NCBI GenBank assembly: GCA_043784805.1
Contig: JAYVXX010000111.1
Span: 1 to 39,176, forward strand
Direction: 5' to 3'
Source: Minisyncoccota bacterium
GTDB lineage: Bacteria > Patescibacteriota > Minisyncoccia > Phycocordibacterales > UBA5272
DNA: 39,176 bases
In this document: positions 22,270 to 38,277 of the stretch, piece by piece
Layout: each line of letters opens with the position of its first letter
Numbering within the stretch: the stretch's first letter is position 1
Program-made: the position numbers and the translations under genes
The notes under the pieces: generated by a model
What the model was told of the DNA's origin: nothing
Seen by the model: only the letters and a program-made list of their open reading frames with translations
The model's database searches: none

Positions 22270-25125
22270 ATGAAATCAGTGCCAATTGAGAACATCAACG
22301 CTCTGGCTGAACTGGAGCGATTGAAATGGGCTTGGAGCGCATCAGGCGATAATGAAGTCAGTATTTGCTGTCCTGTACACAAGGAGACTAATCCATCAGC
22401 GTTATTAAACACTGACAAGAATCTATGGAAATGCCAAGTGCCGTCTTGTAGCGGTAAGGGCGACATAGTGAACCTACTTTGTCATATCACGCTCACAGAT
22501 CGCAACGTGATGCTTGCTGATTTGTCAGAACGTTACGATCTGTATGAGGTCAAAGCTCTTAATCCAAGCATGGTAGAGACACTTCATGAACATATTTGGG
22601 AAGCTGGACCACTACTAAAAGCATTGTACGATCGTGGACTAACTGATGGAGATATTAGACGGGCAAAGCTAGGATTCAACGGAAAGCGTATCACCATACC
22701 AGTCTATGATGAAAAGCGCAATGTAGTGAATGTTCGCAAGTATCTTCCCGGTGCACCTGGCCCAGAGAAGATGATCAACACGTCAGGGTACAGCAAACCT
22801 AGAATATACCAGATTGAAGATGTAGTACAATTTGACAGTGTATGGTTACTAGGTGGTGAGTGTAAAGCTATAGTGGCTCGCAGACTACTTAACCCTCACG
22901 GAATAGGAGCTTGCAGTATTACGGCTGGTGAAGGTTCTTGGGAACATGAATTTGGAAAACTATTCCAAGGAAAGAATGTCTATGTTGCGATGGACGTGGA
23001 TAAGGCTGGGACGTTGGCTGCGAGAAAACTTGCTGAGAAGCTTATATCATTCACCAAGAATGTATACATCATCAACTTACCGCTTGACATTAAAAAATAC
23101 CCCAAGGGTGATATCAACGATTTTGTGGGTAATGAGGGTGCCACGGATAAAGAGTTACTTGCGATTACGCCGATACCGTTCACACGTGTCGTCACGCCTC
23201 AAGAGCAGCACGACCTAGGAGAAGTGAACACCAAGCTACTTCACGCAGCTAGGTCTGAGAACGTAGGTAGGAAGATATGTTTGGAAGCTGTAGTACACGC
23301 AAAGGTAGACCCACCCTACATAGTACCTAAGAACGTAGGTATTGAATGCACTAGAGATCAACCTAACTGTGAATGGTGTCCAGTAATGTCCAAGGAGCCA
23401 GATGATAAGAATGGTCTGACTTGGCTTACGGTGAAGGGCACATCACCCGGTTTGCTACAGATGATCGCCGCACCTATTAAGCAGATGCGAGATGCTATGC
23501 GTGAAGCTTTGGGCGTGCCAGTCTGTAAGGTAGCTGAGTTCACGGTGAAAGACCACCTCGACGTAGTAGATGTCAGGTTGTCTCCGCAAATTACTACAGA
23601 CGGCTCAAACGCAGATCACGTAGTGTTACCAGCCTATATCGTAGACAGGCCGGTGGACATAAACACTCCCTATAAGCTGACAGGCAGAGTATACCCGCAT
23701 CCTAAGAATCAGCAAGCTATTCTCTTGTTAGATGAAGTGACAGTAGCTGCAGATAGTCTGGACTGTTTCGATGATTCAGATATGTCAGAGCTGAAGATTC
23801 TCCAGCCAGTAGAGAATTCACTTGCTGGTATACAGATGAAGCTTGATGAAATCTATTCAGACTATGAAGCTAATGTAACTAATATCTATCAGCGTAGAGA
23901 CTTTCACTTATCGCTTGACCTGATGTATCACTCAGTGCTTTATATGGAGTTTGACGGTAAGCAGCAAAACGGATGGGTAAACGTCATCGCCGTAGGAGAC
24001 TCAGGACAGGGTAAGTCAGAAGCTAGTACAAGAATGAGAGATCACATAGGGTTAGGTGAGAGAGTAGACTGTAAGACCGCCAGCGTTGCTGGCCTACTAG
24101 GTGGTGTGCAAGACCTTAGTGGTCGATGGTTCGTGACATGGGGTGTCATTCCTATGCATGACCGTCGTGCGGTTATCCTTGAAGAAGTGAAGGGCGCATC
24201 GACTGAGACGTTGGGCACACTCACTGATATGCGTAGCTCCGGCAAAGCACAGATCAACAAGATAGCTAAGCATACAGCCTATGCCCGCACCCGGCTGTAT
24301 ATGATGACCAACGCTAGGGGCAAAGCCAAAATGTCTGATCACAACTTTGGTTGTGAAGCTATCTTGGAAGTGATGGGATCACTTGAAGACGTTAGACGGT
24401 TTGATGTCGGTATTATTCTCTCAGAGAATCAGATCAACGCAGCTGACATTAACAAGCTCAAAGAAGATCGACCAACTTGCGAGCATACCTACACTTCAGT
24501 GATAGCTAGAAAAGCTGTGCTATGGGCTTGGACCAGAAAGCGGGATCAAGTAATCATCGACCCAGACGCACAGAAAGAATGTATCTATGCCAGTAACTTA
24601 ATGTTCAGCAAGTTTGATGAGTCTATGCCACTAGTAGACAAGGGTACTATGAAGTACAAACTGGCCAGACTCGCCACAGCTCTGGCAGCAAGGTTATACT
24701 CTACCACAAACGATGGCAAGATGGTAATGGTTAAGAAGTGCCACGTAGAATATGTAGCGGCATGGATTGATCGGATGTACTCTGATAAACACTTTGGCTA
24801 TGTGGACTACTCACGAGCCAAGAGATATCAGGTACAAGTCATTGACCCTAATATAGTGCGTAGAAACTTGCTGGCTACCAAGCACCCGGCAGACTTAGTA
24901 GAGAACATCACTCACGCTACTGAGATCAACATCAATGATGTGATGGATTGGACAGAGACAGACTTTGCCGGTGCCCAACAACTACTATCGTTCCTGGTGC
25001 GCAAGCACGCCTTGTATCGTGTAAAACGATGGTATGTCAAGACGTCAGAATTCATTGAGTTACTAAAGCAGATGAGGATTGAAGGTATACCAACTGAACC
25101 AGAGATTGGAGAAGATAGACTATGA
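22270..25125 (+). CDS. DNA primase (CHC2 zinc finger + TOPRIM) fused to MCM-like AAA+ helicase
   Basis: Zinc finger: CCPVHKETNPS...WKCQVPSCSGKGD. TOPRIM: GGECKAI and YVAMDVDKAG. C-terminal module: Walker A AVGDSGQGKSE, SVAGLLGGV, Walker B-like AVILEEVKG, MMTNARG, and the Arg finger-like VRRFDVGIIL. Start ATG 22270 is preferred because ATG 22249 lies inside the hairpin stem. Confidence 0.85.
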   Translation: MKSVPIENINALAELERLKWAWSASGDNEVSICCPVHKETNPSALLNTDKNLWKCQVPSCSGKGDIVNLLCHITLTDRNVMLADLSERYDLYEVKALNPSMVETLHEHIWEAGPLLKALYDRGLTDGDIRRAKLGFNGKRITIPVYDEKRNVVNVRKYLPGAPGPEKMINTSGYSKPRIYQIEDVVQFDSVWLLGGECKAIVARRLLNPHGIGACSITAGEGSWEHEFGKLFQGKNVYVAMDVDKAGTLAARKLAEKLISFTKNVYIINLPLDIKKYPKGDINDFVGNEGATDKELLAITPIPFTRVVTPQEQHDLGEVNTKLLHAARSENVGRKICLEAVVHAKVDPPYIVPKNVGIECTRDQPNCEWCPVMSKEPDDKNGLTWLTVKGTSPGLLQMIAAPIKQMRDAMREALGVPVCKVAEFTVKDHLDVVDVRLSPQITTDGSNADHVVLPAYIVDRPVDINTPYKLTGRVYPHPKNQQAILLLDEVTVAADSLDCFDDSDMSELKILQPVENSLAGIQMKLDEIYSDYEANVTNIYQRRDFHLSLDLMYHSVLYMEFDGKQQNGWVNVIAVGDSGQGKSEASTRMRDHIGLGERVDCKTASVAGLLGGVQDLSGRWFVTWGVIPMHDRRAVILEEVKGASTETLGTLTDMRSSGKAQINKIAKHTAYARTRLYMMTNARGKAKMSDHNFGCEAILEVMGSLEDVRRFDVGIILSENQINAADINKLKEDRPTCEHTYTSVIARKAVLWAWTRKRDQVIIDPDAQKECIYASNLMFSKFDESMPLVDKGTMKYKLARLATALAARLYSTTNDGKMVMVKKCHVEYVAAWIDRMYSDKHFGYVDYSRAKRYQVQVIDPNIVRRNLLATKHPADLVENITHATEININDVMDWTETDFAGAQQLLSFLVRKHALYRVKRWYVKTSEFIELLKQMRIEGIPTEPEIGEDRL

Positions 25126-25586
25126 AACAAGTAAGAGACTTTCACAAGAAGTATGGTCTGCCGGTAGATGAAAACCTGCACGACCACAGTGGTATAGATA
25201 CTACACACTCTTTGAAGCTTCTGGCGGCAGAGATTCATACTATCACAGAAGATAGTTTGGAGAGAGCAGTAAGTACACGCAATGGTGGCGACCACCGATT
25301 GTGGCGTATGCATCTGTTACTAGGCGAAGTTGCGGAGATGGCCCAGAGCTTAGCAGATCGCAACGAGATAGAACTTGCTGACGCTCTGGGCGACTTGGAC
25401 TATGTAGTCAAGGGTACAGCGGTGACGTATAACATACCCTTAGACTATGTAGCGACAGAGATACACAAAAGCAATATGACCAAGCAACTATGTCTCCGTC
25501 CCAAAGGCCCAGACTACGTTCCGCCGGACATAGAAGGAGCTATAAAGAAGGGCAGAGAGTTAGCGGGGGGTGGGAAGCATGAGTAA
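25122..25586 (+). CDS. MazG-like (all-alpha) nucleoside triphosphate pyrophosphohydrolase
   Basis: LLLGEVAEMAQSL...ELADALGDLDYVVKGTA...IHKSNMTK shows the EExxE...ExxD metal-binding helix pattern of the MazG/dimeric dUTPase superfamily. Confidence 0.75.
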   Translation: MKQVRDFHKKYGLPVDENLHDHSGIDTTHSLKLLAAEIHTITEDSLERAVSTRNGGDHRLWRMHLLLGEVAEMAQSLADRNEIELADALGDLDYVVKGTAVTYNIPLDYVATEIHKSNMTKQLCLRPKGPDYVPPDIEGAIKKGRELAGGGKHE

Positions 25587-25704
25587 TTCCAAGGATTTAA
25601 TTCGTTTAGAAGATGCGGCGAAACTGTGCATGCCTTCCAAGTCAGGTAAGACACCTCATTTTAGTACACTTTGGAGATGGTGCAGAAAATCAGTTGTACG
25701 CTAA
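25579..25704 (+). CDS. Small HTH-like ORF (41 aa), not in the ORF track; possibly a truncated DUF1580/excisionase-like DNA-binding protein
   Basis: ATG 25579 overlaps the MazG stop. The translation is MSNSKDLIRLEDAAKLCMPSKSGKTPHFSTLWRWCRKSVVR. The H.ST.WRWCRK pattern is recalled from DUF1580-type HTH proteins, which normally continue for ~30 more residues. Confidence 0.4.
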   Translation: MSNSKDLIRLEDAAKLCMPSKSGKTPHFSTLWRWCRKSVVR

Positions 25705-25752
25705 AAAATTTAAGCTTAGAAAAGCTTATGTTAAACTTATTAGGAGTAGACA

Positions 25753-26613
25753 ATGAACCTAGCTCAACGCATTCTCTATGAAGGTCTGTGTAGGCCGAAC
25801 AATGTGAATCCTCACTTCAAGCTGGAGCTTGATGAGATGGTGAAGCTACTACCTATACAGATAGTGTCAGTGCCTCATTTTGAGACACCTAGGATTCTGG
25901 CTCAGTCTTACAGTGATCTGGAGGGAATTAAGAAGTTAGCCATCTATCATCTATACCCAGCCTACTGGATGGAAAATTCTACCAAAGGTACTCTGATATA
26001 TGACGGCAAGACTTTCGACAATGAAACTATCTACTCAGGAGCTTTGTTCCTATGGGAGAAGGGTATACCTACTATATTTAACATAGTAGCCCACCGATTT
26101 GAGAAACCTAAGATCATAGCTGCTTGGTTGCCGAGCAGTGACCCGCACGACAAGTTTGGCGTCTACACTATCTCTGACCTCACTAGCCGGTCAGCCTATG
26201 ATGCCAACGGAGATATACAGAAGATTATACAGCAAGCTACTATTTCAATGAATACGCTCTGGCCTATGTTTGCTGCACACAACCTACTACGCTGCTCGAA
26301 CATCACCGTCACCGATACTGAGATATCTCCTGATAGAGTTAAGCGGGCACGCCGTCTTACTACAGAGCCAACTCTAATCTACAAGACGTTAGTAGTTAGG
26401 GTGCCCAAAGAGCAAGCTAAAGCTTATGGCAGAGAGTGGGTGAACTTTGATGAGATGCCTATACACTCTGTACGCGGTCACTTCAAGAAGTACACAGTAG
26501 AGAAACCACTGTTTGGTAAATATATCGGTGAGTTCTTCTGTCCGCCCTTTGTGAAAGGTACTCCGGACAACGGCACTATATCCAAGGATTACAAACTCGA
26601 TGGGAACAAGTAA
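25753..26613 (+). CDS. Hypothetical protein (286 aa)
   Basis: ATG preceded by AGGAG at 25743-25747. By eye it is more AT-rich than its neighbours. No family recognised. Confidence 0.6.
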   Translation: MNLAQRILYEGLCRPNNVNPHFKLELDEMVKLLPIQIVSVPHFETPRILAQSYSDLEGIKKLAIYHLYPAYWMENSTKGTLIYDGKTFDNETIYSGALFLWEKGIPTIFNIVAHRFEKPKIIAAWLPSSDPHDKFGVYTISDLTSRSAYDANGDIQKIIQQATISMNTLWPMFAAHNLLRCSNITVTDTEISPDRVKRARRLTTEPTLIYKTLVVRVPKEQAKAYGREWVNFDEMPIHSVRGHFKKYTVEKPLFGKYIGEFFCPPFVKGTPDNGTISKDYKLDGNK

Positions 26614-26863
26614 CAGAATATACATCGTAGTAGATTCACCACCCGGCTACAAAGTAAGTAGGAGATACACAAAAGAAGTTATGTTACAGTATCTAACTCT
26701 CGATGGACACTGGACAGAGACTGGAGACATATTCACTAACGTGTCTCAGCTACAAGGAATGAAAGTCAAGGACTATAACTCTACGGCTGTTGTCTTTAGA
26801 GCATTGACCAAGAAACTACTCTCATTGAGGAAGAAACATGATCTCAGCATTCGACACGATTGA
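26600..26863 (+). CDS. Hypothetical protein (87 aa)
   Basis: An ATG ORF overlapping both neighbouring genes. Confidence 0.45.
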   Translation: MGTSNRIYIVVDSPPGYKVSRRYTKEVMLQYLTLDGHWTETGDIFTNVSQLQGMKVKDYNSTAVVFRALTKKLLSLRKKHDLSIRHD

Positions 26864-27815
26864 CGAACTATGGCTCTATGCGGCTGACCTTATTTTCAAG
26901 TATGGTCACGACTGTCCGTCACGTGACGGAGCTAGTAGGGAGATAATGGGCTTTGCGGCAAGGCTAAACAACCCCATGGCTCACTTCCTGTTTAACCCTG
27001 TGCGTAAACTTAACCCAGCGTACGCTGCGGCAGAGATGATCTGGTATCTGTCCGGCGATCAGAACATTGACAGGATACTACCATATGCCAAACAGTATGA
27101 GCGATTCGCCAACGATGGTATAGCTCACGGAGCTTATGGCTACCGATGGAAGAAGGACAGAAATTTTCTAGCAGAGAAGGAATACACCGGTATACCCAGC
27201 AAGTCTCAGTTAGAAGCTATTATAGACTTGCTGGCGGTGAAGCAGGCTACTAGACAGGCAGTGATGACGATGTGGAATGCTGGAGACTTACTACACGCTA
27301 TTGTGGGAGACTACAAAGACCTGCCCTGTACTTTAAGCTTAAACTTTCTGGTCAGGGCCAACAAGCTCTATATGACCACCACGATGCGCTCCAACGACAT
27401 ATGGCTTGGACTACCATATGATATCTTCTGCTTCACTAGCTTACAGATTATCATAGCTTCAGCTCTGAACCTAGGCTTGGGGTGGTATCAGCACCAAGCT
27501 ATGTCGATGCATATCTATGACCGTAACATTGAGAAGTGTAGGCTTGCTGTCAACCCGCCAGAGTTTAAGTGCGGGCCGATGGATTATAGTCTGGAATCTA
27601 CCGGAGCTAGTATCTTCCAACGTATCAGATCACTAGTACAGACAGAAGAACATAACCAACGTTTTGCCACTGTGAGCAAAGTAGCTAACTTGGGAGGGGA
27701 GTTTTCCCTGTTCGAGAATTTATCTTGTATGGCAGCCTATCGTTGGTGCCCAGATAGAGCTTATGAGAGAGTGAGTACAAAACTTTTACAGGAGTACATG
27801 CATGTTAATTCTTGA
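26838..27815 (+). CDS. Thymidylate-synthase-fold pyrimidine C5 transferase with dCMP-type specificity residue (dCMP hydroxymethylase/methylase-like)
   Basis: Core ThyA motifs are present: AYGYRW, RQAVMTMWN, DLPCTLSLNFLV (Cys164, nt 27327-27329), TMRSNDIWLGLPYDIFCF and MHIYDRN. Asp195 (GAT 27420-27422) occupies the position of ThyA Asn177, as does Asp179 in T4 gp42. Confidence 0.8.
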   Translation: MISAFDTIDELWLYAADLIFKYGHDCPSRDGASREIMGFAARLNNPMAHFLFNPVRKLNPAYAAAEMIWYLSGDQNIDRILPYAKQYERFANDGIAHGAYGYRWKKDRNFLAEKEYTGIPSKSQLEAIIDLLAVKQATRQAVMTMWNAGDLLHAIVGDYKDLPCTLSLNFLVRANKLYMTTTMRSNDIWLGLPYDIFCFTSLQIIIASALNLGLGWYQHQAMSMHIYDRNIEKCRLAVNPPEFKCGPMDYSLESTGASIFQRIRSLVQTEEHNQRFATVSKVANLGGEFSLFENLSCMAAYRWCPDRAYERVSTKLLQEYMHVNS

Positions 27816-28329
27816 AGGAGCTGGTAGACTAGGTAAGTCTACCGCAGCGTCACGGTTAAACGAGTTGGCTATACAACGTGGATGGACGTGGGTACAGAAA
27901 AGAAAAATGAACAAACCTGGTCCAGACTTTGACTGGAGATATCAGAATCTCATCGAGCCAGAGATTATCCAAGATAGATTTCATCTAGGTGGGTTGGCCT
28001 ACCATCATCAAGATGAGACACAGCTTGATGAGATCAGAGTACAGATAATCAACAGCTGGATTCACGCGACTGGTGGTATAATCGTCTTGTTTTACACTGA
28101 TAACATGGCGTTCTATGGCAAACAGTTTTCCGCTTTCCGCCACGAGAATAAGCCAGACAATATGGATCACTACATCCTACAACAATCAGCAAACTATAAA
28201 TTCACTGACATGCAGAGATATGCTGATCATGTAGTAAGAGTGAACAGTGTCGATGACTTCCCTACTGACGACACGTTAAACTTCTGGCTCGATGAATGGG
28301 CCATCCGCCGTGGCTTCGCACTGGAGTAA
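27802..28329 (+). CDS. P-loop deoxynucleoside monophosphate kinase (thymidylate kinase-like)
   Basis: Walker A is LEGAGRLGKST. QDRFHLGGLAY resembles the TMK DRY..S..AY motif. The gene sits between the ThyA-fold and deaminase genes. Confidence 0.65.
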   Translation: MLILEGAGRLGKSTAASRLNELAIQRGWTWVQKRKMNKPGPDFDWRYQNLIEPEIIQDRFHLGGLAYHHQDETQLDEIRVQIINSWIHATGGIIVLFYTDNMAFYGKQFSAFRHENKPDNMDHYILQQSANYKFTDMQRYADHVVRVNSVDDFPTDDTLNFWLDEWAIRRGFALE

Positions 28330-28332
28330 TTT

Positions 28333-28869
28333 ATGTACACAGAAATAGCTAGTAGTATCTTACAAACCATGGACTCTGCACAGAAGTACGCAGCAAGCAG
28401 AGTAACCTGTAAGCGTAAAGCTGTCGGCTGCGCAGCGGTGAGGATAGTAGGTGGCTTCTTAGATAAAACTCGATATACTTACAACGGACCAAGTATATCG
28501 AGAAGTGTCTGTACAAACATAGTAGGTAACTGTGGGTGCTCTCACGCAGAGCCACGGATGGTCATGAAGCTACTTCATGACGGATACGCAGGCGGGAAGA
28601 AGTTTGTCCTGCTGTGCGAGTATTCGCCATGTACTAATTGCGCGAACATTATACTGGACTCCAACCTGTTTCACGGAATCATATATCACAAGCTAACAGA
28701 GCACGATGTAAGGGGCAGAGACTACTTACTGCAAGCATGGCCGCTAGGTGTACTCACTACTGACCAGCTAGTAGCTTACATCAACGATAGTAGGTATGAG
28801 GGTATCACCTTAGCTACTAAGGTGGTAGTGTCTTCTGTGCGAGATTCTTTTGATCACTGGTCACTATGA
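28333..28869 (+). CDS. dCMP/cytidine deaminase-family zinc enzyme
   Basis: The zinc-binding motifs CSHAEPRMV (H-A-E) and SPCTNCANIIL (PCxxC) are present. Confidence 0.85.
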   Translation: MYTEIASSILQTMDSAQKYAASRVTCKRKAVGCAAVRIVGGFLDKTRYTYNGPSISRSVCTNIVGNCGCSHAEPRMVMKLLHDGYAGGKKFVLLCEYSPCTNCANIILDSNLFHGIIYHKLTEHDVRGRDYLLQAWPLGVLTTDQLVAYINDSRYEGITLATKVVVSSVRDSFDHWSL

Positions 28870-30857
28870 TAAATCCTAACTACAAATTAGTAACTAACAG
28901 CACTCAACTACCTAACGTGGCTGGGTGCGAGCACCTATTCTTAGACGTTGAGACATGTATTATGTCTGATGTCAAGAAGTGGGCAGGCTTGTACCCATTT
29001 AAGGGAGACAGAATTGCTGGCATAGCTCTCAAAACTTCCGACAGTCCAACGTGTTGGTATGTGCCGGTGAGACACAAGAATTATAACAACGTGGACTTCT
29101 CAGCGTATCAGAAGTGGCTCACGGAAATTATGTCTAAACGGGACGGGTGGTGGATCAATCATAACATCCTAATAGACATGGCTTTTGTGGCTCACGATGG
29201 TGTACCTATCCACCGTCAAGTAATAGATACTCTCACTACTGTGAAGCTACTAGACACTGACCGCATGAAATATGGGTTAAAACCTTACTGCAAGGAAGTG
29301 CTGGGCTTGCCGATGGCTGAGGAGCTAGGGATTAAAGCTGCTCTGAAAATTATCAAGTCTAAAAGCTACGGCGATGTACATCCTAACATAATGGGAGAAT
29401 ATGCTTGTAATGACGTGTTCGCCAACGAAATACTTCACCAGCACATAGAGTCTACTTTGCCGGAGCAGGTGCGAGGAGTGTATAAGACAGAGATACTACT
29501 AACTCCCATACTTCACGATATGGAGTTGGTAGGCCAGCAAGTAGTTAAGCAGGAGCTTATCCTAGATAAGCTTGCTGGCATCCGGCTACTCATAGAGCTG
29601 AGCTCAAAGTTGGCAGAGCTAACTAACAGAGAGTTCACTAACAGCTCTATATGTATCAGGGACATTTTCTGTAATATCCTGGGTCTACCTGTCTTGCTGA
29701 CCATTACTAAAAGAGATTCACTCACAGGTAGATACATAGATACTGGCAGGCCGTGTTTTGATAAGAAAGCTCTGGCACTATATGAAGTACATCCGCAGGT
29801 GACTGGGAATAAGACTAACAACAAGATAGTCCAGATGATCATGGCCTATCGTAAGGAGTCACAGCACCAGTCTCTGTTTGTTAATAGCTTCCTAGAGCTT
29901 ATGGATAGCTCAGAGCGTATTCATACTACCTACACGCAGCTAGTAAGGACAGGCCGGATGTCAGCCAAACGTCCCAATGGTCAGCAGAACACTAAACGCA
30001 GCAAGAGACTTATCAAGCCACGTAAGGGCAGATGCTTTATATCCTGCGATTATTCACAGATTGAGTTCAGGCTTATCGTTCACTATATCCGCGATCAAGA
30101 CGCCATCATGGCGTATCATGAGAATCCAAAGACAGATTTCCATGAATGGGTGGCGAACATGTGTCACATGGATCGATCCGCCGGCAAGACTATGAATTTC
30201 AGAATCGGGTTTGGTGCTGGTAAGTTCAACGTAGAAGCTGCTCTTGCTACAGATAAGAGTGTGGCGGCGGAAGTGTCTAAAGAAGTGGAAAAGATGGGCA
30301 TTGCTGACGACCAGAAAAACAGGATGTTCCATCAGCTATGTAAGGACAGGGCGGCAGCGTTGTATCATAAGTATCATGAGACTCTGCCCGGTATTAAGAA
30401 GACATCTGCGGAGGCAGAAGCAGTGTGTAAACGTCGTGGGTTTGTGTTTAACAATCACGGCAGACGGAGACACTTACCACCGAAAGCAGCAAGAAAAGCA
30501 TTTAATAACCTGTGCCAAGGTGACGCGATGGATATCATTAAGGAGCGTATGGTGGCGATATCACACCTATATAACAAGAAGATGCGCGACTGGGACATTA
30601 GAATTGCTGCTAACGTCCACGATGAGATTCTCTTTGATGCGCCTGAAGAGCTAATGCTAAACACGGAAGTCCACGACTATATATTGTCTGTGCTCCAGAC
30701 GCCTGACGTGAAATACTCCGTGCCGATTATCGCTGGACTGGGCGTATCTAAGAATAATTGGGGTGAGGCCAGCGGCGATCTGTCCGTGCTGGAGGACGGG
30801 TCGAAAGTTAAAACCGTACCTGACGGAGCTAAAATTTTGGCCGGAAAACTGCGCTAA
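28866..30857 (+). CDS. Family A DNA polymerase with 3'-5' exonuclease domain
   Basis: Exo I is FLDVET, Exo II HNILIDM and Exo III YACNDV. Pol motif A is DYSQIEFRL, motif B RSAGKTMNFRIGFGAG and motif C NVHDEILF. Confidence 0.95.
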   Translation: MINPNYKLVTNSTQLPNVAGCEHLFLDVETCIMSDVKKWAGLYPFKGDRIAGIALKTSDSPTCWYVPVRHKNYNNVDFSAYQKWLTEIMSKRDGWWINHNILIDMAFVAHDGVPIHRQVIDTLTTVKLLDTDRMKYGLKPYCKEVLGLPMAEELGIKAALKIIKSKSYGDVHPNIMGEYACNDVFANEILHQHIESTLPEQVRGVYKTEILLTPILHDMELVGQQVVKQELILDKLAGIRLLIELSSKLAELTNREFTNSSICIRDIFCNILGLPVLLTITKRDSLTGRYIDTGRPCFDKKALALYEVHPQVTGNKTNNKIVQMIMAYRKESQHQSLFVNSFLELMDSSERIHTTYTQLVRTGRMSAKRPNGQQNTKRSKRLIKPRKGRCFISCDYSQIEFRLIVHYIRDQDAIMAYHENPKTDFHEWVANMCHMDRSAGKTMNFRIGFGAGKFNVEAALATDKSVAAEVSKEVEKMGIADDQKNRMFHQLCKDRAAALYHKYHETLPGIKKTSAEAEAVCKRRGFVFNNHGRRRHLPPKAARKAFNNLCQGDAMDIIKERMVAISHLYNKKMRDWDIRIAANVHDEILFDAPEELMLNTEVHDYILSVLQTPDVKYSVPIIAGLGVSKNNWGEASGDLSVLEDGSKVKTVPDGAKILAGKLR

Positions 30858-31649: not shown

Positions 31650-31676
31650 TCGAAACAGCTCCTTGAAGGAGATGTC

Positions 31677-31958: not shown

Positions 31959-31961
31959 CTC

Positions 31962-31990
31962 TTTACTTTTAACCTATTATAGTCTATAGT
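31962..31990 (+). promoter_or_regulatory. Sigma70-type early promoter TTTACT-17-TATAGT
   Basis: -35 at 31962-31967 and -10 at 31985-31990. It has the AACTCTTTACTT block and begins 4 nt after the upstream stop. Confidence 0.6.
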
Positions 31991-32051
31991 AGGTTCTCTG
32001 ACGGCTGCCGACAGTCTCCGATGGAGACGGGCAAATAGTTTCAGTTTTCTA

Positions 32052-32069
32052 TAGTAGGAGAATGTTATG
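32052..32069 (+). promoter_or_regulatory. Leader/RBS cassette variant TAGTAGGAGAATGTTATG
   Basis: Ends in ATG 32067. Confidence 0.6.
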
Positions 32070-32675
32070 TCCAATGTTCAAATTAGCGGCACCAAGAAGA
32101 TCGGTGGCAACAAGGCAACTCAGACCAAGAGCAACGTAGCTCCGGCTGAAGTAGTCACAACCACTGTCACTCCTGCCGCACAACCGGAGTCTCAAGTGGA
32201 AGTTACTACCAATACCGTTACCCAGACCGAACCGCAGACCATCCCCGCAGGAGCTGTGCCCGCTGGCACGGAAGCTCCCAAGAAGCGTGGGCCCATCGGT
32301 GCGGTGCGCACCGTGTTCGATATCGCCAACGGCAAAGACGCTGCCGGTGTATCAGTCTACAACAGTGAGAAGAAAGTTCTCACAGGCGTCCCGATCAACT
32401 ATGATTGGAACAAAAACTCCCCTTTGGAGGATAAGCAATTCGTAGACAAAGCTACGGCTCTGGACTTCAAGGCGCATATCGCCGACAAGTGGGCAGAACG
32501 TTATATTGGGTCCGCCAAGAATTACCGGCTCAAGGCTGAGATGTATCGTAAGGGTGGCAACCCGGACGATACCAAGAAGATGGAAAAGATGGAAAAGATG
32601 CGTCGGGAATACGCTGCGTACGCTGCGCAGCTGAAAGCCGATGGCATCGAGGTGCCGCCTTTGTGTGCTTCGTAG
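32067..32675 (+). CDS. Early protein (202 aa) with Thr/Pro/Gln/Val-rich low-complexity N-terminus
   Basis: It has a promoter, leader and ATG. It contains the MEKMEKM tandem (ATGGAAAAG x2 at 32581-32598). Confidence 0.7.
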   Translation: MSNVQISGTKKIGGNKATQTKSNVAPAEVVTTTVTPAAQPESQVEVTTNTVTQTEPQTIPAGAVPAGTEAPKKRGPIGAVRTVFDIANGKDAAGVSVYNSEKKVLTGVPINYDWNKNSPLEDKQFVDKATALDFKAHIADKWAERYIGSAKNYRLKAEMYRKGGNPDDTKKMEKMEKMRREYAAYAAQLKADGIEVPPLCAS

Positions 32676-32698
32676 TTAGTCTGTCTGCTCAGACACTC

Positions 32699-32730
32699 AC
32701 ACCTATCCAGTCTAACGGCTGGATAGGTGT
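32699..32730 (+). terminator. Hairpin terminator
   Basis: ACACCTATCCAG (32699-32710) pairs with CTGGATAGGTGT (32719-32730) around an 8-nt loop and is followed by TTAAACTCTT. It starts 24 nt after the stop. Confidence 0.55.
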
Positions 32731-32739
32731 TTAAACTCT

Positions 32740-32760
32740 TAACCAGTAGGAGCAGCCATG
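32740..32760 (+). promoter_or_regulatory. Leader/RBS cassette variant TAACCAGTAGGAGCAGCCATG
   Basis: Ends in ATG 32758. Confidence 0.55.
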
Positions 32761-33063
32761 AGCGAGAAACAAGCCGTTCGGTCCATCCAAGAGAAGTCTA
32801 CTGACCTAGACAATCGGGTAAGATACTACCGATACTTGGTGGAGAACAACGACAAACTACGTGCAGAGCTACTATCTAAGTACAACCAGGCTAAGTCTGA
32901 CCTAGATAGGCACGATGAGAAGGTAGTGATGGCGGAGTCCATCATAGCTGAGTGCATAGGTAAGAAGGACAAGCTTGTCCATGAGGTTAAGGTAGTACAG
33001 GCCACTCCAGCTTTGGAGAAGCTTGCTGCCATCCGTAGGAAGTTCCTTGAATTATCTGCTTAA
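32758..33063 (+). CDS. Small coiled-coil-like protein (101 aa)
   Basis: Leader cassette plus ATG. The composition is charged with a heptad-like pattern. Confidence 0.65.
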   Translation: MSEKQAVRSIQEKSTDLDNRVRYYRYLVENNDKLRAELLSKYNQAKSDLDRHDEKVVMAESIIAECIGKKDKLVHEVKVVQATPALEKLAAIRRKFLELSA

Positions 33064-33487
33064 CACGATAGACGTGTTCACTGACCAGCCTACTTTCGAC
33101 TTGGAAGTTAGCTTGCTGGCCACCACTCCGGTGACAGGCTACGATCTGGTGAGTAGTGTTCAACCTATATCCAGAGTAGTTTATGCCCCATTCTCCGATA
33201 CGTTGAGCCTGAGCTTGACCGGCGACTTGGGAACGGTGCTGGACAACGTAGCGTTGCCCGTATCTGGCCAGCAACTCCTACAGAGACTCACGTTTGAGAG
33301 TAGGTCTGAGACGATACTGTTCAGTGGGTCAGTAGCGGGTGCCGCACCGACTTTCGCAGACATCTCCGTGCCCGACGTGTTGGTACACGTAACGGTGGTG
33401 CCTGAGCCTCAACTATTTGTAGGAGTATTATGTATATTGGCGTTTGTCAGCAGCCGGTTGAATCGTTCCCAAAATGGCAAGACCTAG
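33023..33487 (+). CDS. ATG-less ORF ending in a PEP-CTERM-like sorting signal (start uncertain: TTG 33023 or GTG 33074)
   Basis: It is the only long ORF covering the 366-nt gap 33064-33429. It has no Met codon in 154 codons. GGAG at 33015-33018 precedes TTG 33023. The C-terminus is VVPEPQLFVGVLCILAFVSSRLNR (PEP at 33401-33409). Confidence 0.4.
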   Translation: MLPSVGSSLNYLLNTIDVFTDQPTFDLEVSLLATTPVTGYDLVSSVQPISRVVYAPFSDTLSLSLTGDLGTVLDNVALPVSGQQLLQRLTFESRSETILFSGSVAGAAPTFADISVPDVLVHVTVVPEPQLFVGVLCILAFVSSRLNRSQNGKT

Positions 33488-34182
33488 AAGTGAACACCCT
33501 TGTAGGTATTCCAGGAAGTGCGGGCAAGTATCCTATCGGTAGTGAACCCGCTAACTGGGTTGCCGCAGCGAATGCGGCGGGTTTGTATCAAATCCGGGAA
33601 ATCGTAGGCAAGCCGGAAGTAGATGCGGCAAACTCACTCCTATTAGCTTGGAGTCACGTCGATGAGCCAGACCTAAAGGGTGTTACCCTTGAGCAGCTGA
33701 AGGTTGCTCACGATACTGGCAGGCTAGCAGACATGGTGAGGCCGGTGCCATGGTTCATGAACTTTGCTGGAGGAATGGTATTAGCCAAGGTGCCTAATAG
33801 TCCGACATCGTCGTGGTATCAGCAAGCCTCACAGCAGGCTAGCTGGATCGGCTCTGACATCTATCCTGTATCGGGCTGGAACAACGCTCTGGACCTATTC
33901 ACGCCGGGTCAGTGCGTAGACAAGCTTGCTGGTCTGTGTCCTGGCAAGAAACAGTTTATGTATGTCGAGTGTTGCCGGCAAGGTCTGGGCTGGCTACCGG
34001 GTGGCGGACGTTCACCCACAGTCGCTGAGGTGAATCTTATCGTAGCTCAGGCAGAGCGTAGGGAGGTTGCTGGCATCATATGGTTCCCGATTCAGCCAGA
34101 GGGTGGCTTTCTGTTTGATGCTACTACACCCGACGTCAAGCAGGCTATGAGAGAGATCAATCACAAGTTAAGACGATGGTGA
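33430..34182 (+). CDS. Putative glycoside hydrolase-like TIM-barrel protein (clan GH-A-like)
   Basis: IGVCQQP...W.DLEVNTLVG resembles beta1/alpha1. WSHVDEPD resembles the beta4 (N/D)EP acid/base motif. FMYVECC is a candidate beta7 nucleophile. This is by eye only. An alternative GTG start at 33490 would remove the overlap with the upstream ORF. Confidence 0.5.
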   Translation: MYIGVCQQPVESFPKWQDLEVNTLVGIPGSAGKYPIGSEPANWVAAANAAGLYQIREIVGKPEVDAANSLLLAWSHVDEPDLKGVTLEQLKVAHDTGRLADMVRPVPWFMNFAGGMVLAKVPNSPTSSWYQQASQQASWIGSDIYPVSGWNNALDLFTPGQCVDKLAGLCPGKKQFMYVECCRQGLGWLPGGGRSPTVAEVNLIVAQAERREVAGIIWFPIQPEGGFLFDATTPDVKQAMREINHKLRRW

Positions 34183-34334
34183 TGCCCAGCTCCCGGCTGC
34201 TGATAACGTGAGCAACATTGATACTAAGTTCACCCGGTAGTGTGGGTTTGAGCTAGTCAGTGTAGGAGTTATCAGGGTGAGTGCCGCATCTCTAGTGGCT
34301 AGGTAGTAGTCACACACGGCATAGACTACCACGG

Positions 34335-34362
34335 GTGGTAGTGGGTTAACACTCACTACCAC
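34335..34362 (+). promoter_or_regulatory. 9-bp hairpin immediately upstream of the ligase start, part of an alternative-pairing triplet
   Basis: GTGGTAGTG (34335-34343) pairs with CACTACCAC (34354-34362). The loop is GGTTAACACT. A third complementary segment, CTACCAC, is at 34326-34332. Confidence 0.35.
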
Positions 34363-34366
34363 TCTT

Positions 34367-35221
34367 ATGATGTTCACTGTAGATAACTTACTCCGACCCA
34401 AAGACTACGCTTGCCAGTTAGTGCAGTGGCTACAGACTAAGCGTGATGGTCTGAGACTACTAGTATCCAAGGATACAGCAGGATACATCACGGCCATGAC
34501 TAGGGAGGGCAAGACAGACTTCTGGCCGGAACTTAGGAGGATCAAAGTAGGTTGGGTGGATAGTATAGTAAAGATACCGATGGGCACAGCTCTTGACTGT
34601 GAACTGGATTCACCCAGCACTCAAGCTACCGACATCAAGACTCTTGTGTTGGCCAGCTCTGACAAGCTGGATCTATCTCCATTCGCCATGCCTATGTATA
34701 AGGGTTATGACTGTAGGAACGTAAAGATAATCCTGGCGAACAACTATATCAGAGACATGGGTTTCACTCCTGTTCCGGTGATGGAGATAGACGATGAGCC
34801 AGTAACTCTCAGCGATAGAGTGCTGGACAGCCTCAAGCGTGAAGCTACTAAGTTAGGTACGGAAGGGTGGATCGCCAAGTTAGCCCACTACAATGGTTGG
34901 TACAAGATCAAGCCAATCAGAACGGTAGACTGTGTGGTCACAGGCTATGAGATTAGTACCTCAGACACTTACTTTGGAGGACTAAAGAACATACAGGTAT
35001 CTCTGTATGACAACGAGTGTCAGCTAGTAAAGATTGCTGACGTTGGTAGCGGCTTTGAAGGACACTACAAGAACAACGTTGACCCTACTACACTATTAGA
35101 TAGGGTATGTGAGATAGCTTATGACTCCCTTGCCAGCAAGGGTAAGCTAAAATTCCCACGGTTCCTACAGTGGCGTGATGACAAGCCTGCCGTAGATTGC
35201 ACGAAAGACCAACTATTATGA
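34367..35221 (+). CDS. ATP-dependent DNA ligase (small T7-type)
   Basis: Motif I is KRDGLR (Lys25, AAG 34439-34441), motif IV EGWIAK and motif V WYKIKP. Confidence 0.85.
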   Translation: MMFTVDNLLRPKDYACQLVQWLQTKRDGLRLLVSKDTAGYITAMTREGKTDFWPELRRIKVGWVDSIVKIPMGTALDCELDSPSTQATDIKTLVLASSDKLDLSPFAMPMYKGYDCRNVKIILANNYIRDMGFTPVPVMEIDDEPVTLSDRVLDSLKREATKLGTEGWIAKLAHYNGWYKIKPIRTVDCVVTGYEISTSDTYFGGLKNIQVSLYDNECQLVKIADVGSGFEGHYKNNVDPTTLLDRVCEIAYDSLASKGKLKFPRFLQWRDDKPAVDCTKDQLL

Positions 35222-35544
35222 TTGAATGCACCTTTATTCACACAGGCCAAACGTATTTCTTTGCCACACTACATGGCAAGTTTGCGCACACTGAGGAAGT
35301 AGATGGTGGGCCAATTATCTCTGCCGGCCCACATCAAGTCTACTTGAAGAATACTACCATCACACTGGAGAAAGCTCTGAAGGATGGGCTGGTGGTTAAG
35401 ATGGGTGATGGAAGATTGGAGGATTGCCGGTCAACAAAGAAGATGCCGGAGAAAATCACAATCTTACTCCAGAATCTTGCTGATGCCTATAAGGATATTG
35501 AGGACTATCTCACAGACCCAGAGCGATGGGATGGGATGTCATGA
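35218..35544 (+). CDS. Hypothetical protein (108 aa)
   Basis: ATG 35218 forms an ATGA overlap with the ligase stop. The track start at 35197 is a TTG. Confidence 0.55.
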   Translation: MIECTFIHTGQTYFFATLHGKFAHTEEVDGGPIISAGPHQVYLKNTTITLEKALKDGLVVKMGDGRLEDCRSTKKMPEKITILLQNLADAYKDIEDYLTDPERWDGMS

Positions 35545-36374
35545 GAGATAACTATGTTCACGGCTCTGCTAGTATCCAGCAATTCTTTAACTGGATCAAC
35601 GAGAGGCAGGCTATATGGTGGCGTAGGAGTAAAGGTCACCCAAAGCCATGGACTACTGACCCGGTGATGCTGGACTATAAGTTCACTAACTGTTTCAGAG
35701 AATTAGACGCTGGTACAGTGGCTCTGAGACTTATGGAGTGTGGTCACATAGATAAGCCACTACTTATCTGGAACGCATGGTGGTATAGGTTGTTCAACTG
35801 GCATGAACACGCTACCAAACTAGGGTTTATATTTCACTACAATACCCTTGAAGAGTACATGCTGGACCTACATAAGCGTGACGGGAGAATCTTCACCGGT
35901 GCCCACATGGTACGTGGGTTAAATGGTGAACGTAAAGTGTTCTCATATCTACGTCTGGCCAAGCAACTCTATGAAGAGCGTGACGCTATATACCAGCAAG
36001 TTAAGCTTGCTGGCACCATAGAAGGTGCCTACAACGTCTGTCTAGGTTACTATCTGATGGGTGACTTCACTAGCTATGAAGTAGCCTGCGATATGCGCTG
36101 GACGGTGCTTAGGGATGCTCCAGACAAGCTTACGTGGGCTAACCCAGGCAACGGAGCTATACGTGGGTTAAAACGTCTAGGGTTATCTCCTACGTTGGCA
36201 GGAATGATACAGATCTTTGAGATGAAGGATTACTATCTTGCTTATTGGGTCAAGAACGCACCGGTGCCTTTTGAACTTAGAGAGATTGAACATAGTCTCT
36301 GTGAGTTTGACAAATATGAGCGGGTCAGGACTGGCCAAGGCAGACCACGTTCCAAGTACAATGGGAGGATATAA
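35541..36374 (+). CDS. Helical enzyme resembling the 5-hmdU DNA hypermodification family (5-hmdU DNA kinase helical domain / aGPT-pyrophosphorylase-like)
   Basis: ATG 35541 forms an ATGA overlap; an alternative ATG is at 35526. The N-terminal signature W..ERQAIWWRRSKGHPKPWTTDPVMLDYKFTNCFRELDAGT matches the recalled pattern ER..I...R..G.P.PWT.DPIL..YRF.N.YRE.D..T. FTGAHMV and MGDFTSYEVACDMRW are also present. The assignment is from memory, not from a search. Confidence 0.55.
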   Translation: MRDNYVHGSASIQQFFNWINERQAIWWRRSKGHPKPWTTDPVMLDYKFTNCFRELDAGTVALRLMECGHIDKPLLIWNAWWYRLFNWHEHATKLGFIFHYNTLEEYMLDLHKRDGRIFTGAHMVRGLNGERKVFSYLRLAKQLYEERDAIYQQVKLAGTIEGAYNVCLGYYLMGDFTSYEVACDMRWTVLRDAPDKLTWANPGNGAIRGLKRLGLSPTLAGMIQIFEMKDYYLAYWVKNAPVPFELREIEHSLCEFDKYERVRTGQGRPRSKYNGRI

Positions 36375-36383
36375 GGAGTAGGT

Positions 36384-36674
36384 ATGAGTACGAAACTTGC
36401 TGCCAAGGCGATTCTAGTTGCACTAGACGCACTTGACAGAGTCATTAAGCTGGAGATTAAGATGTCAGAAGCTCTCGATAAGATCAACAAAGACCTTGCA
36501 GACATTAACACTTTTAGCAACGGCCTGGCCACAGAAGTCACCGCCCTGCGCGACAAGGTCGCCAATGGGATCACACCCGCTGAAGCTGCTGGTGTGACCA
36601 CTCAGCTTGATGGTATCGCTGCCAAGCTGCAAGCACTTGCTGCTAATCCAGCAGCTCCTGTGCCGGTTGCATAA
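36384..36674 (+). CDS. Small Ala/Leu-rich coiled-coil protein (96 aa)
   Basis: ATG preceded by AGGAG at 36374-36378. It is followed by a strong hairpin. Confidence 0.6.
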   Translation: MSTKLAAKAILVALDALDRVIKLEIKMSEALDKINKDLADINTFSNGLATEVTALRDKVANGITPAEAAGVTTQLDGIAAKLQALAANPAAPVPVA

Positions 36675-36680
36675 CTAACT

Positions 36681-36718
36681 AAACATAGGCTCACTGAGAA
36701 GTCGGTGAGCCTATGTTT
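36681..36718 (+). terminator. Hairpin terminator (14-bp perfect stem plus 3 further pairs, GAAG loop)
   Basis: AAACATAGGCTCAC (36681-36694) pairs with GTGAGCCTATGTTT (36705-36718). It starts 7 nt after the stop. Confidence 0.6.
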
Positions 36719-36720
36719 CC

Positions 36721-36751
36721 TAACTAGTAATAGAAACTGAGGTACAACATG
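36721..36751 (+). promoter_or_regulatory. Leader cassette remnant TAACTAGTAATAGAAACTGAGGTACAACATG
   Basis: It shares the TAACTAGTA head with the conserved cassette but has a different SD (GAGG). It ends in ATG 36749. Confidence 0.35.
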
Positions 36752-36994
36752 GATGAAGAATATATGCTGGCCTATCTTGAGATGCGTAAGGCAATCTTGA
36801 TGGCACAGAAGCAAGTGTTGTTTATGTATACTCTGGAAGGCGATGAAGAGACTAAGAATAGGCTCAAGGCTATGAGTATGCTACTTCACGCCGACACAGT
36901 AAGTATGCCTAAAAACTACCCAAAGACCGCACTACAGGTACAATCGGGTAATGGGGATGCCTTTAGACTGGAGTTCTTAAAACATGGACTATGA
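36749..36994 (+). CDS. Hypothetical protein (81 aa)
   Basis: An ATG ORF with a GAGG SD. Confidence 0.55.
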   Translation: MDEEYMLAYLEMRKAILMAQKQVLFMYTLEGDEETKNRLKAMSMLLHADTVSMPKNYPKTALQVQSGNGDAFRLEFLKHGL

Positions 36995-37484
36995 TAAACC
37001 AGTAGGTTCACACCACGGCATACCAGACCTAACACAACGTGATATCACGCTGCTTGAAGCTCATGCTTTATGGGTAAAAACAGCCATCGCTGCTGGCTCC
37101 TATCCAGTCGGGTGGATGCCTCATCACCCTGACTGGATCAAGTCTAGGTTGTTCTGGCGTATTAGGTCTGGAAAGCAGCCGTTGGAGTATCCGCCACCAA
37201 CATGCTACTCTTGCCCGTGGTATGAGCTAATAGAAATGCCGGAAGTGTCTCACTCTACTTATGAGATAGTGCGGACTGTTGATTTTCTTAGTAATGATAT
37301 CAAGTCTGTCATAGTAGCTCAGTGTCGGTATGTATACATCTCTGGACCTATGGATAACCCTACTCAAGAAAACCCTATGATCATTAAATATGGTCAATAC
37401 AAGTTCCGTGCGTGGAACGGTGCGAATACGTCTAGGATGGAGCCAGCAGGGTATATTAAACTGGAGTCTACTGATGGGTTGTGA
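36984..37484 (+). CDS. Hypothetical protein (166 aa)
   Basis: An ATG ORF overlapping both neighbours. No family recognised. Confidence 0.6.
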   Translation: MDYDKPVGSHHGIPDLTQRDITLLEAHALWVKTAIAAGSYPVGWMPHHPDWIKSRLFWRIRSGKQPLEYPPPTCYSCPWYELIEMPEVSHSTYEIVRTVDFLSNDIKSVIVAQCRYVYISGPMDNPTQENPMIIKYGQYKFRAWNGANTSRMEPAGYIKLESTDGL

Positions 37485-37848
37485 TATTCACCTACATACC
37501 GAAGTTAAGGTTGCTGGCAAGTGGCATCACATGGGTCATCCCTTTATTCGCCGACACTACTTGTTGTTTGCGAAGATGGCTAATGTGCGCAATGACCCAG
37601 TGAGAGTCATTGACCCTATTAAACGTCATCTGGGCATCCCTGAAGACGCTACAGAGCTGACCAAGCTGTGTTTCGAGTTGGATCGTGAGAATTATTCTGA
37701 CCTACGTGAAGGATGGCTGGACAGCATTCATATTAGGGAGTTATATGAATGGTACGATAAGCTTAATGAAGCTCATGGCCTTGAAGGGTGGTGGGCTTTC
37801 AGAATACCGTTTGAGGATGTTCGGTTTATCTTTTGGTTTGATAACTAA
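37474..37848 (+). CDS. Hypothetical protein starting MGCDIHLHTE (124 aa)
   Basis: ATG 37474 is preceded by GGAG at 37464-37467. The track start at 37390 overlaps the upstream gene by 95 nt. I recall the MGCDIH N-terminus as a recurrent phage protein family of unknown function. Confidence 0.6.
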   Translation: MGCDIHLHTEVKVAGKWHHMGHPFIRRHYLLFAKMANVRNDPVRVIDPIKRHLGIPEDATELTKLCFELDRENYSDLREGWLDSIHIRELYEWYDKLNEAHGLEGWWAFRIPFEDVRFIFWFDN

Positions 37849-37857
37849 GGAGCACAA

Positions 37858-38277
37858 ATGAAAATCTACATTGCAGCGTCGTTTACTCAGAGAGACTATG
37901 AAGCTGCTGACATGAAGAACTGCTTGCTGGCAGCCGGTCACGAAGTAACTAGCCGATGGCTGGACCCGCTACACCAGAAACACAACAGCTATGGTATGGA
38001 GGACAAGTTTGCCGCTATGGACCTTACCGATATCCGGCGGTCTGAAGCTATGGTCATCATCACGGAGGGTGACGGCAAGCAGACTACTAAAGGTGGCAGG
38101 CACACAGAACTAGGTATAGCTCTGGAGCGTCACATACCTATCTTCTTGTATGGTCCCAAGGAGCAGGTGTTTCACAACCTGCTGAGTATCCAGCAAGTTA
38201 TTACTACAAGTCGGTTGATATTCGAGTTGGCCAAACACAGTAAGACTGCTTCAGGCAGCGTTGAAAGCTCTGGCTGA
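37858..38277 (+). CDS. Nucleoside 2-deoxyribosyltransferase / dNMP N-glycosidase (DNPH1/Rcl)-like protein
   Basis: MKIYIAASF..., ...DLTDIRRSEAMVII..., and GGRHTELGIALERHIPIFLY match the fold pattern MKIYxAGP...D...I..sD.vv....s.Gt..E.G.A...gkPv. The SD is AAGGAG at 37847-37852. Confidence 0.55.
   Translation: MKIYIAASFTQRDYEAADMKNCLLAAGHEVTSRWLDPLHQKHNSYGMEDKFAAMDLTDIRRSEAMVIITEGDGKQTTKGGRHTELGIALERHIPIFLYGPKEQVFHNLLSIQQVITTSRLIFELAKHSKTASGSVESSG

Follow-up and report, generated by a model that had tools for sequence, protein, structure and literature searches.

A phage gene set that pairs a predicted dCMP hydroxymethylase with thymidine-hypermodification enzymes, and a possible route to 5-hydroxymethyluracil by deamination of 5-hydroxymethyl-dCMP

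In the Pseudomonas phages M6, YuA and PaMx11, the Delftia phage PhiW-14, the Salmonella phage ViI and the Acinetobacter phage SH-Ab 15599, thymidine is hypermodified by a pathway that relies on a 5-hydroxymethyldeoxyuridine (5-hmdU) DNA kinase, 5-HMUDK, and on an amino-acid:DNA transferase, AADT or aGPT-Pplase2 (PMC5889632, PMC8989533, PMC13458397). The characterised thymidine-hypermodifying phages are all thought to start from a hydroxymethylase that acts on dUMP. We analyzed a 39,176-nt stretch of DNA (contig JAYVXX010000111.1 of assembly GCA_043784805.1, hereafter the window), in which a tailed phage has its genes for replication and nucleotide metabolism between 25 and 39 kb, and found that this arm combines the same post-replicative chemistry with a ThyA-fold hydroxymethylase of the cytosine type. 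The puzzle that a first-pass annotation had raised, a cytosine-type C5 hydroxymethylase beside enzymes of thymidine hypermodification, is genuine, and none of the papers listed in our literature searches pairs a 5-HMUDK with a dCMP hydroxymethylase. The explanation that we favor, with a probability of about one half, is thymidine hypermodification of the known 5-HMUDK/AADT type that would be supplied by an undescribed pre-replicative feed, the deamination of 5-hydroxymethyl-dCMP (5hm-dCMP).

The six open reading frames (ORFs) that the first-pass annotation had assembled into a pyrimidine-modification system are all present, on the + strand. Its claim that the system does not match any described pathway was overstated, since a 5-HMUDK (PF18748) and an AADT (PF18724), which it had not reported, stand directly after the window end, the first of them already beginning at 39027. 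We read the sequence past this end on the parent contig (L002), a 53,399-bp Logan contig from SRR23617254 that was found by exact-protein match and that overlaps the window over 11,319 nt with 0 mismatches. Gene families, active-site signatures and linkage were read directly from the sequence, and the genes concerned are the following:

25122..25586, + strand: predicted MazG-like (PRA-PH family) deoxynucleoside triphosphate (dNTP) pyrophosphatase (Pfam PF01503, E 4.8e-8; PHROG 671 'nucleotide pyrophosphohydrolase', E 8.9e-20).
26838..27815, + strand: predicted ThyA-fold pyrimidine C5 hydroxymethylase (Pfam PF00303 Thymidylat_synt, E 1.1e-26).
27802..28329, + strand: thymidylate-kinase-like P-loop deoxynucleoside monophosphate (dNMP) kinase (Walker A GAGRLGKST and a DRFH motif; 14-nt overlap with the end of the hydroxymethylase gene).
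28333..28869, + strand: phage zinc deaminase of the dCMP-deaminase family (Pfam PF00383 dCMP_cyt_deam_1, E 2.5e-6; HAE and PCxxC motifs).
28866..30857, + strand: family A DNA polymerase (PolA) with a 3'-5' exonuclease domain (Pfam DNA_pol_A, E 1.5e-43; DNA_pol_A_exo1, E 3.5e-6).
35541..36374 (ORF opens at 35526), + strand: HMUDK_hel protein, a clade-1 aGPT-Pplase and AADT paralogue (PF18723, E 1.7e-39).
37858..38277, + strand: probable nucleoside 2-deoxyribosyltransferase/DNPH1-like dNMP N-glycosidase (PF05014 Nuc_deoxyrib_tr, 28.4 bits against a cut-off of 28.8, E 1.9e-6).
39027..39176, + strand: 5-HMUDK, N-terminal 50 residues, cut by the window end (translation MKILDIRGTNGSGKSS...; detected by tblastn).
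L002:11943-12800, about 0.8-1.6 kb past the window end: AADT (PF18724, E 3.9e-17).

The hydroxymethylase has the CMP hydroxymethylase MilA as its top PDB match (E 5e-24). We compared the five active-site positions that correspond to L143, C146, H147, D169 and N177 of E. coli ThyA (signature L/C/H/D/N). The window enzyme displays D/C/T/D/D, which is also the signature of the T4 dCMP hydroxymethylase gp42 and, where aligned, of MilA; the dUMP hydroxymethylase gp51 of PaMx11 and the MW202557 enzyme both display D/C/N/D/N. The dCMP-type Asp noticed in the first-pass annotation is Asp195, which aligns with Asn177 of E. coli and Asp179 of T4 gp42. Moreover, Cys164 aligns with Cys148 of gp42, Asp161 lies three residues ahead of the catalytic Cys as in T4 gp42, MilA and PaMx11 gp51, and 'MRSND' keeps the D169 equivalent; a 5-residue insertion of the phage enzymes near position 143 leaves the E. 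coli alignment ambiguous at that point. The Asp177-equivalent and the Cys were present in all 120 of the 120 closest protein homologues and the full signature in 78 of the 80 closest IMG/VR relatives, nearly all 80 of which share 'CT' and 'MRSND' with T4 gp42 and MilA. According to published residue rules, Asp177 marks the use of dCMP (PMC8670742, PMC13326640), while an acidic residue at position 143 indicates a hydroxymethyl product and D169N a 5-hydroxy-dCMP synthase (PMC13326640). By those rules, the D/C/T/D/D signature predicts that 26838-27815 encodes a dCMP hydroxymethylase. Two other assignments were rejected: a plain thymidylate synthase, given the Asp at the 143- and 177-equivalents and 'CT' rather than 'CH', and a 5-hydroxy-dCMP synthase of the RB69 type, given that D169 is kept.

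The Asn177 dUMP hydroxymethylase that would be expected of a 5-HMUDK/AADT system is absent; the only ThyA-fold gene is the one with Asp195, and our searches of the window and the next 9 kb gave no second gene of this fold. The pathway could still be the canonical one of PaMx11 or 15599, with dUMP supplied by the deaminase and then hydroxymethylated by the ThyA-fold enzyme in spite of its Asp. The gene content is indeed PaMx11-like (pyrophosphatase, ThyA homologue, deaminase next to PolA, HMUDK, hel and AADT) and parallels the 15599 pathway (PMC13458397), but the Asp is invariant in 200 of the 200 homologues examined, and the mutagenesis studies cited in PMC8670742 and PMC13326640 are described there as showing that Asn177Asp shifts specificity from dUMP to dCMP. 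Conversely, the PaMx11-type hydroxymethylases encoded near hel genes have Asn at this position in 71 of 71 cases, a comparison that covered PaMx11 gp51, MW202557 and these 71 metagenomic enzymes. We therefore consider it quite improbable that dUMP is the substrate in the window phage.

The post-replicative half of the system, with 5-HMUDK and AADT standing right after the window end, is the thymidine-hypermodification pathway already described in M6, PaMx11, ViI, PhiW-14 and SH-Ab 15599. A tblastn search with PaMx11 gp49 matched positions 39023-39094 of the window, and the complete 5-HMUDK on the parent contig is a 185-aa protein that matches PF18748 (E 1.9e-9) and is 28% identical to the characterised gp49 (E 1e-13). 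It is followed by a 78-aa ORF, the AADT gene and a class II ribonucleotide reductase gene. In the AADT, for which single-sequence searches gave no match in the PDB and none in our viral-contig scan, an E-T-S-L-C motif aligns with Glu243, Thr244 and Cys247 of the PaMx11 enzyme, and the equivalents of Trp146 and Lys150 are kept. In the structure of PaMx11 gp46, the Glu and Thr hold a metal that contacts thymine O4 (PMC11472151), and mutation of these ligands in the 15599 Pplase2 abolishes activity (PMC13458397). In addition, a characterised (commercial) 5-HMUDK phosphorylates DNA containing 5-hydroxymethyluracil (5hmU), not DNA containing 5-hydroxymethylcytosine (5hmC) (PMC6457204). A complete and canonical post-replicative core (5-HMUDK, AADT and hel), a transferase that keeps the metal ligands contacting thymine O4 and a kinase family whose characterised member rejects 5hmC all favor 5hmU as the base that is presented to these enzymes.

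These same features bear on the possibility that cytosine is the hypermodified base, which the first-pass annotation had proposed next to 5hm-dCMP deamination. In that case the dCMP hydroxymethylase, the dNMP kinase and the pyrophosphatase would bring about the replacement of C by 5hmC as in T4, the 5-HMUDK-like kinase and the AADT would phosphorylate and aminate 5hmC, yielding an amine- or amino-acid-substituted 5-methylcytosine, and the deaminase would merely supply dUMP for host dTMP synthesis. A hydroxymethylase signature identical to that of T4 gp42 is what such a pathway would have, but an exocyclic C4 amine would not fit the Glu/Thr ligands to thymine O4 that are retained in the window phage's AADT, and 5hmC is not a substrate of the characterised kinase. 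The two hypotheses remain the main candidates and the evidence leans to deamination; that the kinase and the AADT act on 5hmC seems to us possible but unlikely. In a milder variant, a single dCMP hydroxymethylase could feed both pyrimidines, giving virion DNA in which C is replaced by 5hmC and T is hypermodified.

We found no tailoring enzyme of the pyridoxal phosphate (PLP), radical S-adenosylmethionine (SAM) or FAD type in either the window or the 9 kb that follow, so that the base is probably left as the transferase makes it. As to the donor, the residue following the catalytic Cys of the AADT is an Asp, at the position held by Lys248 in the glycine-using YuA and PaMx11 enzymes and by Gly in the diamine-using 15599 enzyme. 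Given that Lys248 of YuA forms a salt bridge with the glycine carboxylate, an Asp in place of this carboxylate-binding residue weakly suggests that the donor may be an amine or a polyamine rather than an amino acid.

The protein encoded at 35541-36374 had been read as a helical enzyme of post-replicative 5-hmdU hypermodification. Its family was correctly recognized, since the profile search places it in HMUDK_hel and not in an unrelated family, whereas its role as a catalyst of the 5-hmdU pathway did not hold: it is an orthologue of PaMx11 gp50 (34% identical) and of M6 gp55, and gp55 is dispensable in vitro, in lysates, for the production of N-alpha-glycinylthymidine (PMC8989533). The hel protein is not the 5-hmdU DNA kinase. 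A single-sequence search of the PDB with it gave no match. However, an E-H-S-L-C motif is invariant in a 16-member alignment of the family and falls, by hhalign (probability 71%, E 3.8e-5), on the catalytic E-T-x-L-C of the AADT, which identifies hel as a paralogue of the AADT with both the cysteine and the glutamate conserved. Across metagenomic loci, the hel gene usually adjoins a ThyA-fold hydroxymethylase gene (L018-L088, 63 IMG/VR loci; also L127-L132, L136-L138 and L154), and most of them have no detected 5-HMUDK or AADT within 10 kb, whether their hydroxymethylase is of the Asn or the Asp type. Despite its Pfam name, the family seems to go with the hydroxymethylase and not with the kinase.

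The genes of the hydroxymethylase, the dNMP kinase, the deaminase and PolA run head to tail on the + strand with overlaps of 14 nt and 4 nt, the deaminase stop overlapping the PolA start as ATGA, and this block is kept in relatives, where the kinase gene also adjoins the hydroxymethylase gene and the pyrophosphatase gene stays upstream of it. The deaminase assignment holds, its profile matching the dCMP deaminases of cyanophage S-TIM5 (4p9c, E 7.8e-9) and of T4 (cd; 1vq2, E 2.4e-8). The dNMP kinase assignment was likewise borne out, by the Walker A motif and by a profile of 8 orthologues, which matches SPbeta YorR (2axp, E 4.8e-9) and several thymidylate kinases (E 7e-4 to 2e-3); a single-sequence scan of Pfam, PHROG and NCBIfam gave no match, so that this kinase is recognizable by its orthologue profile only. 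That it might be a second 5-HMUDK was rejected, as it does not resemble the contig's HMUDK in sequence and its profile matches thymidylate kinases. The protein at 25122-25586 falls among the MazG-like pyrophosphatases as proposed, its top PDB match being the MazG-like NTP pyrophosphohydrolase DR2231 (E 0.002), although the suggested likeness to T4 gp56 found no counterpart in pairwise BLAST, which detected no similarity. Its candidate substrates are dCTP, dTTP or dUTP. The sixth ORF of the first-pass annotation, at 37858-38277, retains its deoxyribosyltransferase/DNPH1 identity as a probable one, since its Pfam score is below the cut-off and a PDB sequence search with it gave no match; orthologues occur in several related contigs. 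It contains a ...TELG... motif that resembles what we take to be the catalytic-Glu motif of the family.

A precedent for the deamination step is the human dCMP deaminase DCTD, which deaminates 5hm-dCMP; the CRISPR screen of the same study had the thymidylate kinase gene Dtymk among its 5hmdC-sensitising genes, and modified dCMPs are rejected by CMP kinase (PMC10305735). This precedent, together with the thymidylate-kinase-like nature of the phage kinase, the T4 gp42-type signature with D169 kept, and the arrangement of the four genes, contiguous or overlapping, and its maintenance in relatives, favors a pathway whose substrates, order of steps and final base we infer as follows. The pyrophosphatase would trim the canonical pyrimidine dNTP pool, and the ThyA-fold enzyme would hydroxymethylate dCMP, not dUMP, to 5hm-dCMP. 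The neighboring deaminase would then have to convert at least part of the 5hm-dCMP to 5hm-dUMP, the step on which the proposal depends. The thymidylate-kinase-like kinase would produce the diphosphate and the host NDP kinase 5hm-dUTP, and PolA, which presumably incorporates the modified dNTP, would insert 5hmU instead of T; some 5hmC may also enter the DNA. After replication, 5-HMUDK would phosphorylate the hydroxymethyl group, and the AADT cysteine would attack C6, allowing the phosphate to leave and an amine-containing donor to be installed.

To this gene set the first-pass annotation had attached the question of its conservation in related phages, and we found an Asp-type hydroxymethylase together with HMUDK and AADT on at least five contigs of uncultured phages. 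Both HMUDK and AADT accompany an Asp-type enzyme on four contigs other than that of the window phage (L135+L009, L125+L089, L191 and L197). The two closest, IMGVR_UViG_3300033067_000350 (L135+L009/L098) and IMGVR_UViG_3300045996_000876 (L125+L089), carry the trio plus hel, and their AADTs are 37-40% identical to that of the window phage; L191 and L197 form a separate lineage that has the trio without hel. The deaminase is present and the AADT is of the E-T type in L135+L009, L125+L089 and L191. Two further Asp-type contigs (L004+L012 and L124+L016) have hel and HMUDK but no AADT within the stretch covered, and others have hel only. Among 67 dereplicated Asp-type lineages, represented by loci with flanks of at most 10 kb, 15 of the 38 that encode the deaminase also showed hel, HMUDK or AADT genes, against 2 of the 29 in which it was not seen (Fisher p = 0.004, with no correction for phylogeny). 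Of these 2, one is a truncated locus and the other is L197. In neighbor-joining trees of HMUDK and AADT, the proteins associated with Asp- and Asn-type hydroxymethylases are interspersed, and the nearest GenBank HMUDK adjoins an Asn-type hydroxymethylase gene. The tracking of the deaminase by the post-replicative genes and the intermixing in the trees both favor a 5hmU feed through deamination, and the lack of a separate Asp-associated clade of kinases and AADTs speaks against cytosine hypermodification.

Some relatives combine these genes in other ways. In IMGVR_UViG_3300028840_000575, which has an Asp-type hydroxymethylase and hel, the 5-HMUDK (L012:15713-16849) is fused to a C-terminal domain with the SAM-methyltransferase-like motif DYGCNCG. 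In L006, genes for a Glyco_transf_9 protein and a methyltransferase (1131-3124) lie upstream of the same module of pyrophosphatase, Asp-type hydroxymethylase, kinase, deaminase and PolA, and the locus has no hel; the same precursor module may feed different post-replicative chemistries. In L197 (IMGVR_UViG_3300011994_000001), positions 5095-10615 hold a cluster of genes for a Fe-ADH-like protein, AADT, a TET-associated-glycosyltransferase-like protein, an ORF of no assigned family, 5-HMUDK, DUF1599 and the Asp-type hydroxymethylase.

Several observations weigh against a route through 5hm-dCMP deamination. In the metaviromes of the MetaGPA study (PMC8670742), the contigs on which an Asp177 ThyA occurs together with a PRA-PH protein and a dCMP deaminase are ones whose cytosines were shown by experiment to be modified, so that this module alone predicts 5hmC in DNA. 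Orthologues of the kinase and the pyrophosphatase also occur in Asp-type phages without a detectable deaminase, and when Asp-type lineages with and without deaminase were compared for differential residues in the kinase, the pyrophosphatase and the hydroxymethylase, no signal emerged; the kinase and pyrophosphatase may therefore serve the conversion of 5hm-dCMP to 5hm-dCTP in the window phage too. The association with the deaminase ignores phylogeny and depends on the short flanks of the loci, and no cultured relative was found, the top PolA match being 40% identical and also from an uncultured phage. Finally, L197 clusters an Asp-type enzyme, HMUDK and AADT with no deaminase within 20 kb. This contig is, however, also the only one of the four whose AADT lacks the E-T pair, Ser-Ser replacing the Glu-Thr ligands, and its sister L191 has both the deaminase and Glu-Thr. 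L197 is the best candidate here for a genuinely cytosine-directed variant, and its altered ligands suggest that such a variant would differ from the window enzyme.

Tail genes lie upstream of the 25-39 kb arm, and they are followed by genes for an SNF2 helicase, Pam3 gp32/gp34-like proteins and a primase-helicase. Between the pyrophosphatase and hydroxymethylase genes lie two unassigned ORFs, 25753-26613 (286 aa, PHROG 20769) and 26600-26863 (87 aa); the relative L008 also has a small ORF at this place. A GNAT acetyltransferase (14616-15026; Pfam E 1.5e-7) is encoded between an HNH endonuclease and an AAA_5 ATPase and could acetylate the installed amine, as PaMx11 gp48 does; no similarity to gp48 was detected. 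Between the DNPH1-like and 5-HMUDK genes, a DNA N4/N6 methyltransferase gene, absent from the first-pass annotation, is split into at least three reading frames (38386-39029), with a SPPY motif near the N terminus and a C-terminal piece that matches PF01555 (E 4.4e-13); it is either a pseudogene or the product of assembly indels. A megablast search with 14 kb against 50,697 phage records found no near-identical phage. The clade is uncultured, and we found no description of it in the literature.

The frameshifted methyltransferase shows that gene decay occurs in the region, and a distance of 8 to 13 kb separates hel, the 5-HMUDK gene and the AADT gene from the nucleotide module, which raises the possibility of two unconnected features, a T4-like 5hmC module as the sole functional system and a set of recently acquired or decaying passengers that would find no substrate in this phage. 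Yet none of these three ORFs is broken and each retains its catalytic motifs, and the recurrence of the combination on other contigs, with AADTs as divergent as those of the two closest ones, indicates that it is old and maintained. We regard the passenger explanation as very unlikely.

If the deaminase route is correct, this clade, which repeatedly pairs a dCMP-type enzyme with a chemistry otherwise fed from dUMP, would make 5hmU without touching the dUMP pool of the host thymidylate synthase, and the annotation rule that an Asp177 ThyA means modified cytosine would mislabel such phages. If it is not, a branch of the AADT family acts on cytosine, and an amine- or amino-acid-substituted 5-methylcytosine would be the first cytosine hypermodification made by the 5-HMUDK/AADT enzyme family. 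Either outcome bears on the prediction of phage DNA resistance to restriction and CRISPR from sequence, and on DNA-labelling tools.

Compared with known systems, the window phage resembles the M6/PaMx11-type phages in its 5-HMUDK P-loop kinase, its AADT with Cys and metal ligands and the clade-1 paralogue HMUDK_hel, as well as in its phage PolA, dCMP-family deaminase and MazG-like pyrophosphatase, and like PhiW-14 and 15599 it encodes no PLP, radical-SAM or FAD tailoring enzyme. It differs from them in that its ThyA-fold enzyme has Asp, not Asn, dUMP not being the predicted substrate, in that its deaminase would have to act after hydroxymethylation, not before, and in its dedicated thymidylate-kinase-like kinase. 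It also has a DNPH1-like protein where PaMx11 has an HD-domain nucleotidase, and protein identities to PaMx11 are only 22-34%.

With the T4 5hmC pathway (gp56, gp42, gp1 and cd), the window phage shares the roles of pyrophosphatase, hydroxymethylase, kinase and deaminase, an identical hydroxymethylase signature and a deaminase profile that matches cd. In contrast to T4, its pyrophosphatase has no detectable similarity to gp56, its kinase is thymidylate-kinase-like by PDB profile matches, and 5hmU-type kinase and transferase genes stand in for a glucosyltransferase, which it lacks. The uncultured 5hmC phages of the MetaGPA study have the same trio of Asp177 ThyA, PRA-PH and dCMP deaminase (PMC8670742), but their contigs, in which cytosine is experimentally modified, carry a 5hmC carbamoyltransferase, whereas the window has 5-HMUDK, AADT and hel.

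The proposed chemistry, a dCMP-family deaminase acting on 5hm-dCMP followed by a thymidylate-type kinase, would be that of human salvage, in which DCTD converts 5hm-dCMP to 5hm-dUMP, DTYMK makes the diphosphate and DNPH1 destroys 5hm-dUMP (PMC10305735), and the window phage likewise encodes a DNPH1-family protein. Human salvage is accidental and cytotoxic, unlike the dedicated route proposed for the phage, and the homology shown here is at the family level. Lastly, in the 5hmU route of the Bacillus SPO1 type, a dCMP deaminase produces dUMP, a dUMP hydroxymethylase converts it to 5hm-dUMP and a kinase follows. The window phage encodes the same three enzyme classes and its predicted pre-replicative end product is likewise 5hm-dUTP, but the order of deamination and hydroxymethylation would be reversed, because its hydroxymethylase is of the cytosine type.

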